NCBI GenBank assembly: GCA_015064385.1
Contig: SVSI01000011.1
Span: forward strand, 1,883-65,882
Origin: Oscillospiraceae bacterium
GTDB lineage: Bacteria; Bacillota; Clostridia; Oscillospirales; CAG-272
Reading direction: 5' to 3'
DNA length: 64,000 bases
In this document: positions 17,992 to 61,877 of the stretch, in pieces
Numbering within the stretch: the stretch's first letter is position 1
Layout of the letters: each line of letters begins with the position of its first letter
Notes under the pieces: generated by a model
The model's database searches: none
Told to the model about the DNA's origin: nothing
The model's input: only the letters and a program-made list of their open reading frames with translations
Translations under genes and position numbers: made by a program

Positions 17992-18031
17992 TAAAAGTTA
18001 TCTCGGCAGCATATAGTTGCCGAGAAGATTT

Positions 18032-18105
18032 CTGCTCGTAGCGTAGCTGGATAACGCACAAGACTCCGACTCTTGAGACCGCAGGTTCGAATCCTGTCGA
18101 GCAGG
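18032..18105 (+). tRNA. tRNA-Arg(CCG)
   Basis: Acceptor stem CTGCTCG/CGAGCAG, anticodon arm CAAGA-CTCCGAC-TCTTG, GCAGG-TTCGAAT-CCTGT T-arm. Confidence 0.93.
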
Positions 18106-18106
18106 T

Positions 18107-18145
18107 AAATAAACAAAGGGTGGCACAGCCACCCTTTGTTTATTT
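18107..18145 (+). terminator. Terminator after tRNA-Arg(CCG)
   Basis: AAATAAACAAAGGGTGGC-aca-GCCACCCTTTGTTTATTT. Confidence 0.8.
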
Positions 18146-18150
18146 CTCTA

Positions 18151-18260
18151 ACTTAACGATGAAGAACCTCGCATTTTGCGAAGCAAATATGCCAATTTGC
18201 GCAAAGTGAGCGAGCGGTGATAGTGTGCGTAGGCGCAAATTTAGGTTCGTAAATCCTGTC
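18151..18260 (+). repeat. tRNA-linked structured repeat element, copy A
   Basis: Shares ACTTnACGAT, GAACCTC, TTTGCGCAA and CGTAGGCGCAAAyTTAGGTTCGTAArTCCTG with 36718..36826 (minus strand). Confidence 0.8.
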
Positions 18261-18265
18261 AATAC

Positions 18266-18331
18266 GGCACAGCCACCCTTCGTTTATTTCTCTTACCTCA
18301 CGATTAGAACCTTGCATTTTGCGAAGCGAAT
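18266..18331 (+). repeat. Truncated tandem copy of the tRNA terminator 3' half plus the element 5' part
   Basis: Imperfect direct repeat of 18122..18188 (GGCACAGCCACCCTT...GAACCT.GCATTTTGCGAAGC), 144-bp offset. Confidence 0.85.
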
Positions 18332-18336
18332 TTATC

Positions 18337-20139
18337 TCAATCAAAAACTACTATCGCATCAATATCTATGTCACAACCCTCTGCGCGTGGATTTTGCTTA
18401 GAGCATACCGATATTCTAACGGTATGTTCGCCACTTTCAAGTAGCGGACTCAGATACTGCATCGTGCATACGGACGTAGATACGCCGGTCACATTTTTGT
18501 TTGGAGTATCCTTGAACAGTGAATAAAAGTCAACCTCATCGATCTCGCGTCCGTCTATCGATATTTTTGCAATTCCGGACGTTCTGTGAGCGTTACCGAT
18601 AAGCATAAACCGTCTTCCCGTGATCTTGATGTCGGCATAACTGCCACTACTTGAAGAGCGGTGGCACGAGTCGTTTATACACCCGTATTGATCGTCAAGA
18701 ACAGACCAATCGCCGCTATATGAGAACTCGCCGTCGTCGATTATACGGTGTTCTGACGATAGGGCAGTATCTCCCGTGCGAAGGATCAGCCGTCTGTATG
18801 CTTTCAGCGGAATTTTTCCGTGATTTTCAACCTCGAATATGACGTGATATTCTTCACCTTTTCCGTACGGCACCTCGATCGAGGGTGTCGGAGTATCGGA
18901 ATCATTTATCGTAAGCGTGCGGTAAGTTCCTGCCTCGGGGTAGCAGTACGCCTTGTACGTGAGAGTGCCTTTGTCGGGATCCGTGCTTCCCAAGAGACTG
19001 GGAGTTATTATTTCTCCCTCATTAACGTCTAAAACAATTGCAGACGTGCTTTGGTCGCCGTTAAGTACCGCTATCGGATTGTGACAGCATTTTTCGTAAT
19101 CGGGATTTAACGCCCAGTCGATACGTGCCGCCATATCGTTTTGGTAATCGTTTTTCCATCGCGATACGGTGGTAAACGTATCCTTATAAGCAGTTTCACC
19201 GTTAGGATAAGTAAAAGTGTCCGTTTCGTCCTTGTACATATAGTACGGGCGTTCCTCGTGTAAATAGGATTTAGTGAAAAATTCTGCGGGTACGTTAGGG
19301 AAAGGAATGCGTGAAAATCTTCCCGCATGTCCGCCCCATTCAAGACGGTATCTGTCGGTAAGACCGTTGTTTATCATTGCCATAAGGGATGGCGAGTCTG
19401 TTTCAAGACCGTATTTCGTGTGAGGATATATCTTCTCAAACGGACCGCGGCGGATATGTCTGTCCGCCCAAGTATTGCTGACACATTCTACCGACCCCAC
19501 GGTGTATCCCCAACGGTGCGGCGTTTCCGAAAATCCCCAAAATGACGTGGTAGATCTGTACCATTTTATTTCGGGGAAGTTTTTACATATAAAGGCGCCG
19601 CAATCGTCTTGACCGTGAATATCGTAAACGTACAGCTTCTCGGATAGAATATGAGCTTTTTCTACGTCTTCCTGCATAAGGTCGTAAAGTGCTTGCGCGA
19701 GTGTTCCGCAGCCGCCCCAGTTAAGTATCCATAAGGGTCTGTCATCATTGCGCTTCAGCGACGATATTATGAGACGGGAGCCGTCACTTGAAAGACCGTT
19801 TCCTACGTTTTGTAAGGACACCTCGCCGCCGGAGCGCTTCATATGCACGAAAGGTGTTCCGCGCTTTACAACCGAATAAAGATATTCGGCAGTAGGGTAT
19901 CCGTCTTTGTGTGAGATAAGACTACTTCGTACCTCACGGTAAACGTCTATTACGTCGAAAATACGGGTCATAAACCCCTCGTCAGACGTATCGGGAGCAC
20001 ACCACGAGGCGTTTGGAATGATGCCTTCGATCTCGTATTCGTTTGAATACAGCATAAGCCGAACGAGAGACTGTGAATCGTCGGGCTCACTTTCCCAGGG
20101 ACCTATGTCCGTAAGAATTATTATCCTTGCTTTTTCCAT
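18337..20139 (-). CDS. DUF1593 (nucleoside hydrolase-like/Sde182-type) protein with C-terminal Ig-like and beta-sandwich domains
   Basis: RIIILTDI..EPDD.QSLVRLMLYSNE.EIEG, WGG..TLAQAL, QDD.G and QNDMAAR.DW...HNP motifs. Confidence 0.75.
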   Translation of the reverse strand: MEKARIIILTDIGPWESEPDDSQSLVRLMLYSNEYEIEGIIPNASWCAPDTSDEGFMTRIFDVIDVYREVRSSLISHKDGYPTAEYLYSVVKRGTPFVHMKRSGGEVSLQNVGNGLSSDGSRLIISSLKRNDDRPLWILNWGGCGTLAQALYDLMQEDVEKAHILSEKLYVYDIHGQDDCGAFICKNFPEIKWYRSTTSFWGFSETPHRWGYTVGSVECVSNTWADRHIRRGPFEKIYPHTKYGLETDSPSLMAMINNGLTDRYRLEWGGHAGRFSRIPFPNVPAEFFTKSYLHEERPYYMYKDETDTFTYPNGETAYKDTFTTVSRWKNDYQNDMAARIDWALNPDYEKCCHNPIAVLNGDQSTSAIVLDVNEGEIITPSLLGSTDPDKGTLTYKAYCYPEAGTYRTLTINDSDTPTPSIEVPYGKGEEYHVIFEVENHGKIPLKAYRRLILRTGDTALSSEHRIIDDGEFSYSGDWSVLDDQYGCINDSCHRSSSSGSYADIKITGRRFMLIGNAHRTSGIAKISIDGREIDEVDFYSLFKDTPNKNVTGVSTSVCTMQYLSPLLESGEHTVRISVCSKQNPRAEGCDIDIDAIVVFD

Positions 20140-36667: not shown

Positions 36668-36717
36668 AACGAAACGAAAAAGCAGGTCGGAAGACTTGCT
36701 TTTTTACATAAATAACA

Positions 36718-36826
36718 CCGGCAGGACTTACGAACCTAAGTTTGCGCCTACGTTTAGCAATAATCAAAACTTACCTTGCGCAAACCAACACATCGTAAAC
36801 GATGTGTGAGGTTCAAATCGTCAAGT
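36718..36826 (-). repeat. tRNA-linked structured repeat element, copy B
   Basis: Homologous to 18151..18260; lies just past the tRNA-Arg(ACG) terminator in the tRNA orientation. Confidence 0.8.
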
Positions 36827-36831
36827 GAACT

Positions 36832-36865
36832 AAAAAAGCAGATGAGAAAAATCTCATCTGCTTTT
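36832..36865 (-). terminator. Terminator after tRNA-Arg(ACG)
   Basis: AAAAGCAGATGAGA-ttt-TCTCATCTGCTTTTTT-type hairpin on the minus strand. Confidence 0.85.
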
Positions 36866-36868
36866 CTA

Positions 36869-36941
36869 CGCGCCCGGCAGGATTCGAACCTGCGACCTAC
36901 CGGTTCGTAGCCGGGCACTCTATCCACTGAGCTACGGGCGC
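36869..36941 (-). tRNA. tRNA-Arg(ACG)
   Basis: Acceptor stem GCGCCCG/CGGGCGC, anticodon loop CTACGAA, GCAGG-TTCGAAT-CCTGC T-arm. Confidence 0.95.
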
Positions 36942-37048
36942 GTATTTTTCGTACGAAAACGCACACTCGCGTTTCGTACTTGGCGATTATAACACAATAT
37001 TTTCCTTTTGTCAAGAGTAAAATCGCAAAAAATGAAAAAATTTAGGAA

Positions 37049-38451: not shown

Positions 38452-39021
38452 ATGAACCCGCGCGAATACATCGATTTTCTCGGCATAATAGAAAAAAACA
38501 AGTGTAACACCCGCCACTCGTGGACGTCAAGCGGACGTCGCGAGAGTGTTGCTGAACATTCGTGGCGTCTTTCGGTAATGGCTATGCTGTGTGCGGATGA
38601 ATACCCCGATCTTGATATAAATAAGCTTATAAAAATGTGCCTTATACACGATTTCGGCGAGGCGGTCACGGGAGATATTCCGTCCTTTCTTAAGACTGAT
38701 TCTCACGAGAAAGAGGAAGAAAAGGCGATCAAGGAGCTTCTTTCAAAGCTCCCTGATAGCTATCGAGAGGAGTTTACAGCGCTTTTTGAGGAAATGAACG
38801 CACTCGAAACGCCCGAGGCAAAGCTCTATAAGGCGCTTGACAATATGGAGGCAGTCGTTTCTCATAACGAGGCACCCATATCGACCTGGATCCCCGACGA
38901 ATACCGGATGAATCTCACCTACGGCGAGGATAAGGCACAGTGGTCGCCCTGGACGAGAGCACTTCGCGAACAGTTAAAAGAAGATTCACTTAAAAAGATA
39001 GAAGAAAGCAAGGAAAAATGA
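38452..39021 (+). CDS. HD domain phosphohydrolase (HD_3/YfbR-like)
   Basis: RESVAEHSWR, LIHDFGEAVTGD and ALD motifs. Confidence 0.85.
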   Translation: MNPREYIDFLGIIEKNKCNTRHSWTSSGRRESVAEHSWRLSVMAMLCADEYPDLDINKLIKMCLIHDFGEAVTGDIPSFLKTDSHEKEEEKAIKELLSKLPDSYREEFTALFEEMNALETPEAKLYKALDNMEAVVSHNEAPISTWIPDEYRMNLTYGEDKAQWSPWTRALREQLKEDSLKKIEESKEK

Positions 39022-61662: not shown

Positions 61663-61767
61663 AAAAACCTCCTTTACCGCTTGATGTTTGTACAGTAAAG
61701 GAGATCATAAATATAATTTAATCTTCTTGTACGGAAAATATATTCCGTGCATATTCTGTGCAATTTG

Positions 61768-61877
61768 GAAGCGGGATGCAGAGCCCGAACCGCAAACCGG
61801 CTTTAGTGGCACGGTTTTTCGTTCTCCCGACAACTCCCTGTTCGGGGGACACTTAACGAACAAGCTCTTACTCTTCA
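61768..61877 (-). ncRNA. THF riboswitch
   Basis: GAAGAGTA...CGTTAAGTG...GGGAGTTG...GAACGAAAA...TTGCGGT...GCATCCCGC; TTGACT...TATAAT promoter immediately upstream. Confidence 0.92.

Follow-up and report, generated by a model that had tools for sequence, protein, structure and literature searches.

A family of structured modules with cognate T-arm copies behind tRNA genes of an Oscillospiraceae bacterium and its relatives

Introduction

The present study concerns a 64,000-nucleotide stretch of DNA, referred to below as the window, from an Oscillospiraceae bacterium (assembly GCA_015064385.1, contig SVSI01000011.1, positions 1,883 to 65,882), in which two copies of a structured module are located behind the genes for tRNA-Arg(CCG) and tRNA-Arg(ACG), each copy ending in a repeat of the 3' end of its own tRNA. 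The modules belong to an uncatalogued family, which follows many tRNA genes and the transfer-messenger RNA (tmRNA) gene in this genome and is present throughout the genus. They are best filed as a multi-tRNA variant of the kind of element known as RtT in the tyrT-tyrV operon of E. coli. The reading that we favor, with a probability of about 0.5, is that of an RtT-like tRNA-trailer element, which acts as RNA of the sense strand and whose arrays grow by unequal crossover.

Materials and Methods

The genome containing the window, designated G000, has a size of 1.83 Mb in 26 contigs and is 96% complete; C6, C9, C14, C17, and C24 denote contigs of this genome. ARAGORN detects 37 tRNA genes and the tmRNA gene in it, i.e., 38 stable-RNA genes. 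Designations such as G001 or G007 denote other genomes used for comparison, seven of which are from the same genus. The window is found in animal gut or faecal metagenome runs. Additional copies of the module in G000 were initially found by blastn and motif searches, and two covariance models have been used for the search: R1, constructed from 13 copies of G000, and R2, constructed from 84 copies. The anatomy was counted on 111 distinct hits at loci retrieved from 31 genomes. For counting base pairs, we used alignment A4, composed of 84 copies, and alignment A5, composed of 31 copies that are nearly all from other genera and of which few rows were used in model building. Sequence identities were compared for the internal part of the module, and the closing helix (P1) and the tail were excluded.

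Results

Family size and distribution

R1 gave 25 hits in G000 at E<=1, and R2 gave 23 hits at E<=1e-4, located behind 14 of the 37 tRNA genes: Arg-CCG, Arg-ACG, Leu-TAG (two copies), Leu-CAG, an initiator-type Met (two), Ser-GGA (two), Ser-CGA, Ser-GCT (two), Ser-TGA (two, with the contig end repeated on C6), Trp, Gln-CTG, Pro-CGG (three), Glu-TTC, and Glu-CTC. A half-copy 1.8 kb past the Leu-CAG copy was also hit, and diverged modules recognized by eye behind tRNA-Arg(CCT) and the tmRNA gene bring the number of stable-RNA genes with a module to 16 of the 38. Copies are often in tandem. The genes for tRNA-His, tRNA-Lys, and others in G000 have no module, as had been said of tRNA-His in the initial annotation of the window, and tRNA-Leu(TAA) is empty. 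The two copies on which that annotation was based are thus not the only ones, and scanning this genome and its relatives with covariance models has revealed a real family.

All seven other genomes of the genus were matched by R1 (6-17 hits each, E down to 2e-19), and the resemblance of the two window copies far exceeds chance. Two other genera of the family gave weak R1 matches, and 16 genomes representing other families of the order gave none. R2 detected modules in 27 of 151 family genomes (21 of 97 genera), with 1-8 copies in most of them, and gave one weak match in each of 2 genomes among 143 from other families of the order. In other genera, the same layout is also found behind tRNA genes for Ala, His, Val, Pro-TGG, and Arg-CCT.

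Species differ in which tRNA genes are occupied: tRNA-Arg(CCG) has a module in G000, G002, G004, and G005, a remnant in G001, and none in G006 or G007, while tRNA-Leu(TAA), which is empty in G000, is filled in G006 and G007. The idea that empty sites exist in relatives was borne out to this extent, but no alignable pair of empty and filled alleles was found at tRNA-Arg(CCG), tRNA-Leu(TAA), or the tmRNA gene across species, the flanks being too diverged or rearranged. The same module array is present at two contig ends of G000 (C6:59716-59831 and C17:1-276), which indicates that module repeats break the assembly.

Anatomy and matching to the cognate tRNA

One unit is composed of a terminator hairpin, a three-way junction of ~95 nt, and a tail, and has a total length of 150-165 bp. 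In 92 of the 111 hits, a tRNA or tmRNA gene is present upstream on the same strand within 700 nt, and the expected concentration of hits downstream of tRNAs is therefore found. In the 63 first copies, the start is 46-64 nt past the tRNA end (46-56 nt in 62 copies), and the arrangement with a terminator between tRNA and module holds at these 63 loci. Among the hits without a called tRNA, several are behind displaced 3' halves of tRNA-Ser(TGA), others are behind a tail of tmRNA type, and two are at contig ends. Such displaced tRNA-Ser(TGA) halves are typical of island integration at the anticodon loop; at two loci (L023 in G004 and L049 in G006), the 3' half starts from the anticodon loop and has modules attached, with no 5' half nearby.

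The helix P1 is formed between a copy of T-arm positions 51-56 (NGGTTC) and its upstream complement (GAACCN). The pairings observed are GAACCT or GAATCT with AGGTTC, GAACCC with GGGTTC, GAACCA or GAGCCA with TGGTTC, GAACCG with CGGTTC, GAACTT with AAGTTC, and GAACTC with GAGTTC (tmRNA and others). The initial annotation had supposed that the GAACCT arm might pair with the T-arm of the pre-tRNA, and this complementarity is general: in 81 of 90 copies, all bases of the P1 5' strand can form Watson-Crick or G.U pairs with positions 51-56 of the upstream tRNA, while 1000 shuffles of the tRNA assignments gave a mean of 44.0 complementary copies (standard deviation 2.7, maximum 53). The hexamer that copies positions 51-56 is identical to that of the cognate tRNA in 64 of 88 copies.

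In nearly all copies, the breakpoint is in the T-loop directly after C56. Extra T-loop bases right after TTC are present in 81 of 88 comparable copies (one base in 38, two in 41, and three in 2), and among the remaining 7 are a few that were mis-scored by the simple parser, including both window copies, in which the extra bases follow TTCG. Past this insertion, exact agreement of the tail with the cognate tRNA extends over 12 nt in the median copy; it reaches 7 nt or more in 69 of the 88 copies and 17 nt or more in 29, showing that the 3' tail follows the host tRNA as had been proposed from the window alone. Concerning tRNA-like identity, ARAGORN and the Rfam model RF00005 call only the upstream tRNAs and never the modules.

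Fold and strand

RNAalifold gives a three-way junction, in which P1 encloses a hairpin (P2) and a GC-rich helix (P3) with a purine-rich loop of 20-30 nt. In A4, 97.0% of 1546 cells pair and double changes are found in 18 of 19 pairs, while sliding leaves at most 43.8% paired and none of 500 shuffles reaches the observed value. The corresponding values for A5 are 97.6% of cells, 15 of 19 pairs, at most 43.9%, and 0 of 500. The junction was also recovered in 5 of 6 loci by minimum-free-energy folding of single sequences. The fold is kept by compensatory change, and this covariation fits the structured-RNA half of the interpretation originally offered, although that the molecule is RNA is what we infer. 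G.U cells are more frequent than A.C cells (38 vs. 17), and P1 varies on its 5' strand, with G opposite U; the folding strand is accordingly the tRNA-sense strand, by a modest bias among cells that are not independent.

Inheritance and turnover

The internal identity is 0.688 between copies at the same tRNA in different genomes (143 pairs), 0.553 between copies at different tRNAs in the same genome (478 pairs), and 0.532 for the background of different tRNAs in different genomes (2509 pairs). Between tandem neighbors it is 0.928 (30 pairs). Since copies group by tRNA type across species and not by genome, recent transposition is unlikely, and no sign of recent movement between loci was found in this comparison. 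At every tRNA or tmRNA locus, the units are residents passed on by vertical descent; the modules are old there, and the arrays are young and turning over. The alternative of a REP/MITE-like element mobilized in trans, which had been put forward for the window copies, is not supported by these identities, and a recent spread of this type is not borne out, as copies within one genome are less alike than same-tRNA copies across genomes.

Concerning the tRNA genes themselves, the initiator-type tRNA-Met (C24:53068-53142) and tRNA-Trp (C17:3059-3133) of G000 have the T-arm 3' half AAGTCCTTCC in common, which leaves T-stem mismatches (GTTGG/CCTTC and GCGGG/CCTTC, respectively). The 3' end of this tRNA-Met is identical in G006 and G007, and that of tRNA-Trp is identical in G007. 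An exchange of T-arm 3' halves between loci is one possible cause of the common sequence.

The two window copies

On the + strand, tRNA-Arg(CCG) (18031..18106; ARAGORN, and 65.1 bits with the Rfam tRNA model) is the cognate gene of copy 1 and is followed by a terminator-like hairpin with an A-tract and a T-tract (termA, 18107..18146). Copy 1, comprising the three-way junction and the tail, is located at 18155..18266 (94.6 bits in cmsearch with R1, in agreement with RNAalifold and pair counts). Its P1 pairs 18164-18169 with 18243-18248, P2 is the hairpin at 18171-18192, and P3 pairs 18196-18202 with 18233-18239 around the purine-rich loop. The remainder of the T-loop with two extra bases (18249-18254) and the cognate T-stem 3' strand CCTGTC (18255-18260) follow. 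On the - strand, tRNA-Arg(ACG) (36868..36942; ARAGORN and Rfam) has a sigma-70-type consensus promoter, TTGACA-17-TATAAT at 37014-36986, which matches at 12/12 positions and has an extended -10 (TG present) in the promoter scan. Behind this gene, a terminator hairpin with a T-tract (36832..36867; sequence and RNAfold) precedes copy 2 at 36714..36822 (91.5 bits with R1), whose junction was recovered by single-sequence folding. Here P1 pairs 36814-36809 with 36737-36732, the P2 hairpin is within about 36808-36786, P3 pairs 36784-36778 with 36747-36741, and the T-loop remainder GTAAGT (36731-36726) leads to the cognate tail CCTGCCGG (36725-36718).

The initial annotation had thus described the window copies accurately: two homologous modules in tRNA orientation past the two terminators, with the stems GAACCT/AGGTTC and TTTGCGC/GCGCAAA and the conserved blocks in both, an inner hairpin that is non-homologous between the copies yet pairs in each, and a 3' end in which a T-arm copy with two extra bases continues into the cognate sequence.

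A second, truncated unit (18266..18331, +) comes after copy 1; it was recognized because 18266-18331 is 88% identical over 67 nt to 18122-18188 in blastn. As seen from the blastn result, the sequence, and the list of open reading frames (ORFs), it retains the terminator 3' half, the P1 5' strand, and the start of P2, and it ends where the convergent ORF 18337-20139 ends. In one strain (run X5), 706 other letters replace 18249-18335, and the break is directly after GGTTC, at 18248; the array at the copy 1 locus therefore differs at the strain level.

Search for a mobilizing enzyme or a phage link

Only two tyrosine recombinases were found in G000, both Xer-like with best scores to XerC/XerD, and no phage-type integrase was detected. 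There were no hits to the Y1 transposase PF01797, to rve PF00665 (other DDE families being outside the search), or to RVT_1. The possible co-occurrence of a Y1/RAYT transposase or a tyrosine recombinase with the modules was thus not seen in G000 beyond the two Xer-like proteins. Two Resolvase-domain genes are present. Past tRNA-Leu(CAG), a 1.7-kb segment (C9:10698-12602, locus L002) between a full module and a ~50-nt repeat of its 3' half contains a 214-aa resolvase-type serine recombinase with the motif YVRVSSTDQ and a 95-aa ORF, and has the appearance of a small cassette lodged in what was once a second unit. This recombinase is single-copy in G000 and is present in 31 of the 151 family genomes, among the module-positive ones in only 7 of 27; no copy was seen in G004 or G005, though these have 8-10 modules each. 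Only 1 of 29 loci of its homologues in other genomes is near a tRNA. We rejected it as the mobilizer, because the family neither tracks modules nor is tRNA-linked elsewhere.

The 79 ORFs around 24 loci in other genera are ordinary housekeeping genes, with one exception, a fragment of a large serine recombinase (G094). In viral contigs, the pattern GAACCNCGCAAATN{3,14}ATTTGC was found in 10 contigs, for which R2 gave at most 17 bits; the 3'-block pattern had no match in the viral collection, and a two-unit array had no blastn match among 50,697 phage records. A phage or viral origin is thus unsupported in these two viral/phage collections.

Comparison with databases and known systems

No Rfam family matches the modules when the whole window is searched at gathering thresholds, and no family, including RtT, matches at E<=10 over 18000-18400. 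The RtT model RF00391 (gathering score 45 bits), whose control search did hit E. coli, has no match at E<=1 in the whole of G000 or on 10 module loci. No Rfam family, ribozymes and riboswitches included, reached threshold in the modules, and no hammerhead core motif was seen by eye in the junctions. We also rejected a conserved small ORF with the TAA of TTCGTAA as its stop codon, since it does not persist across copies. The modules therefore do not represent an Rfam family already described. Full-text searches of the literature, with subscription papers and supplements outside their scope, found no description of such a family; in one preprint, rttR is mentioned in passing only, and in PMC9897764, partial tRNA genes are taken as products of integration or CRISPR.

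The tyrT/rtT precedent named in the initial annotation is apt: judged from the K-12 tyrT-tyrV sequence, the design of the modules is the same as that of E. coli RtT (RF00391, gene rttR), while the sequence family is different. Both are located directly behind a tRNA gene as tandem units. Each RtT unit ends in AATCCTTCCCCCACCACCA, a tail that starts inside the T-loop, and the modules likewise have tails from the T-loop onward. The RtT hairpin GAACCTT-CGACT-AAGGTTC is a copy of the T-arm 5' half with its upstream complement, as in the modules, and the distal repeats have GAAGCTT as the 5' strand, giving one mismatch. The copy of the T-loop is interrupted in both, by a long hairpin in RtT and by 1-2 extra bases here. 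Unlike RtT, the modules have two hairpins inside P1, no stem pairing with the tail, a terminator-like hairpin in each unit, and no tpr-like ORF, and one homologous family occupies at least 14 tRNA genes and the tmRNA gene.

Other units in G000 widen this comparison. At tRNA-Thr(GGT) (C14 about 102454-102700), a unit with GAATCGG...CCGGTTC, a 25-nt T-loop insert, an exact cognate tail, an exact terminator copy, and the start of a second unit is present; its design is intermediate, with a layout closer to E. coli RtT. Units of unrelated sequence with a cognate tail are also present at tRNA-Trp (C17:3134-3290, locus L007), where GGAAGGACTTG pairs with CAAGTCCTTCC of the tail, and at tRNA-Pro(GGG) (C9 about 38704-38860). 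Since these unrelated Thr(GGT), Pro(GGG), and Trp units have the same breakpoint, the combination of a T-loop breakpoint and a cognate tail is a theme wider than one sequence family.

The att duplications of tRNA-targeting integrative elements and of their derivatives without genes, such as genomic islands and cis-mobilizable elements (CIMEs), have in common with the modules a direct repeat from the T-loop to the 3' end, tandem accretion, and an older-looking outer copy. They differ in that the module units are gene-less and of 150-165 bp, that no integrase is present in the genome and only 1 of the 24 other-genus loci is beside a recombinase, that an indel (1-3 extra bases) is inside the would-be crossover region, and that the modules show compensatory change and vertical inheritance per tRNA. 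REP elements, bacterial interspersed mosaic elements (BIMEs), and miniature inverted-repeat transposable elements (MITEs) are, like the modules, small, structured, gene-less, multi-copy, and intergenic. For the modules, however, no Y1/RAYT gene was found, and they have no target-site duplication and no terminal inverted repeats beyond the 6-bp P1, are strictly positioned behind tRNA genes, and are divergent copies grouped by locus rather than near-identical bursts. With the attC sites of integrons and with cassette arrays that lack an integrase, they share conservation of fold over sequence, an apparently favored strand, and occurrence in arrays; in contrast to attC, no R''/R' core-site arrangement was seen by eye, there are no cassette ORFs, the only tyrosine recombinases have their best scores to XerC/XerD, and the modules are anchored to tRNA 3' ends.

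Elsewhere in the window, a THF (tetrahydrofolate) riboswitch aptamer is found at 61767-61877 on the - strand (72.6 bits; gathering score 36).

Discussion

As an RtT-like tRNA trailer, the element would function as one strand of tRNA sense, in the simplest case as RNA from read-through of the tRNA terminator; we infer this because the promoter scan found no promoter-like site upstream of either window module. For E. coli, Bosl and Kersten (1991) reportedly found that the primary transcript of the tRNA gives rise to RtT as a stable RNA. The arrays would be extended or shortened when the tRNA 3' end recombines unequally with its homologous copy in the tail, and the same process would keep the inner tails and terminators identical to those of the tRNA itself. 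P1 and the T-loop insertion may prevent the duplicated T-arm from adopting a tRNA-like fold, and the junction may function in cis at the 3' end of the tRNA unit, for example in trailer processing, stability, or back-up termination.

Several observations weigh against this interpretation. The single metatranscriptome run found, which had a small share, covered the tRNA only, at a likeness of 90-95% and probably from other organisms; a strong terminator between tRNA and module may keep RNA levels very low. The strand bias is, as mentioned, modest and drawn from dependent cells, and since the tRNA-sense strand is usually also the lagging-strand template, the folding molecule could be single-stranded DNA. 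Both A4 and A5 were fitted to the model, which favors the structure, and the model recovers only copies that still fold. Junction nucleotides are poorly conserved, unlike those of ligand-binding RNAs. Outer tails are sometimes non-cognate, e.g., at tRNA-Arg(CCT), and CCA is present after the outermost tail at tRNA-Trp in G000 and at the tmRNA gene in G004, where the live genes have no CCA. The occurrence of the same breakpoint in non-homologous units also hints at a DNA-level process aimed at the T-loop. As to the CCA, the tmRNA gene of a sister genus encodes it, and an ancestral gene end therefore explains the CCA-bearing tails; their origin by reverse transcription was rejected because of this gene and because RVT_1 has no hit in G000. 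Within the genus, no encoded CCA was seen in the tmRNA genes (7 members with a readable 3' end) or in the tRNA genes looked at, and CCA is encoded by the tmRNA gene and by many tRNA genes of the family's other genera (small sample, by eye).

Part of these observations would be accounted for if the units were gene-less integrating mini-elements or their fixed relics, i.e., circles of ~150-165 bp whose attP combines a T-arm-like site with a cognate tRNA 3' end. Recombining in the T-loop by a recombinase supplied in trans, with the fold formed on single-stranded or cruciform DNA, such a circle would give the tRNA gene a new 3' end and terminator and displace the old 3' end downstream. T-loop-class integrases reportedly duplicate the segment from the T-loop to the 3' end (Williams, 2002), and the breakpoint right after C56 in nearly all copies and in unrelated inserts agrees with this, as do the tandem arrays. 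Because the older-looking outermost tails with CCA, the non-cognate tail at tRNA-Arg(CCT), and the common breakpoint fit insertion or recombination at the T-loop, we keep this explanation as a minority possibility, though a doubtful one. Islands do use tRNA genes here, as the displaced tRNA-Ser(TGA) halves show, and serine recombinases are found in the cassette between module repeats and beside one module in G094. The genome, however, offers no phage-type integrase but only two Xer-like proteins, the small serine recombinase is present in only 7 of the 27 module-positive genomes and almost never near a tRNA, housekeeping genes flank the 24 loci in other genera, and the two viral/phage collections gave no convincing matches. 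A difference of 1-2 nt inside the crossover region is not known to be compatible with the chemistry of tyrosine or serine recombinases. As copies group by tRNA and not by genome, a separate lineage of mini-element would moreover be needed for each tRNA.

An explanation at the level of host DNA would require no dedicated enzyme and so suit an enzyme-poor genome: the tRNA-sense strand would fold as single-stranded DNA during replication or transcription and serve recombination or genome maintenance at tRNA loci, or the units would spread by homologous recombination, the tRNA gene and the tail copy being portable homology arms between strains. The tail would then be the second homology arm, each lineage would stay with its tRNA, and the patchy distribution (27 of 151 genomes, 21 of 97 genera), with occupancy of the same tRNA differing between species, would follow. 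Nothing in this explanation, however, accounts for the need for a three-way junction, tails of often 7-12 nt are short for RecA-type recombination, and no alignable empty/filled allele pair was found; we regard it as quite unlikely. Still less can be said for a functionless by-product, in which tandem duplications of tRNA 3' ends and terminators, arising by slippage or unequal crossover at the near-palindromic T-arm, are decaying. Decay is visible in the truncated unit at 18266-18331, in deleted half-terminators, and in diverging outer tails, and copy number varies between species and strains. But orthologous copies that are only ~69% identical internally still pair in ~97% of cells, with double changes in 18 of 19 pairs, and a neutral by-product is hard to square with such covariation. 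Slippage alone is also insufficient for homologous modules that stand behind unrelated tRNAs and the tmRNA with P1 re-matched each time, and we consider this origin very improbable.

For genome annotation, the units add unannotated arrays of terminators and modules behind tRNA genes, break assemblies at contig ends, as on C6 and C17, and leave partial tRNA 3' ends that can be mistaken for att sites of islands. A broader generalization, which is speculative and on the whole unlikely to hold, would be that RtT-type trailers are general companions of bacterial tRNA and tmRNA genes, structured RNAs encoded beside the tRNA that combine an anti-T-arm strand with a copy of the tRNA 3' end and act on the cognate tRNA in its maturation, its quality control, or its defence against agents directed at tRNA 3' ends; the present Oscillospirales-type family would be one branch of a design that E. 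coli also has. In this small genome, 16 of the 38 tRNA and tmRNA genes carry a conserved, cognate-matched, structured companion that is absent from databases, and the one analogue documented so far, RtT of E. coli at its single known locus, has been unexplained since the 1970s-90s. Since many independent loci, covariation, and natural variation in presence and absence are now available, the purpose of tRNA-tail repeats becomes testable by comparison and deletion.

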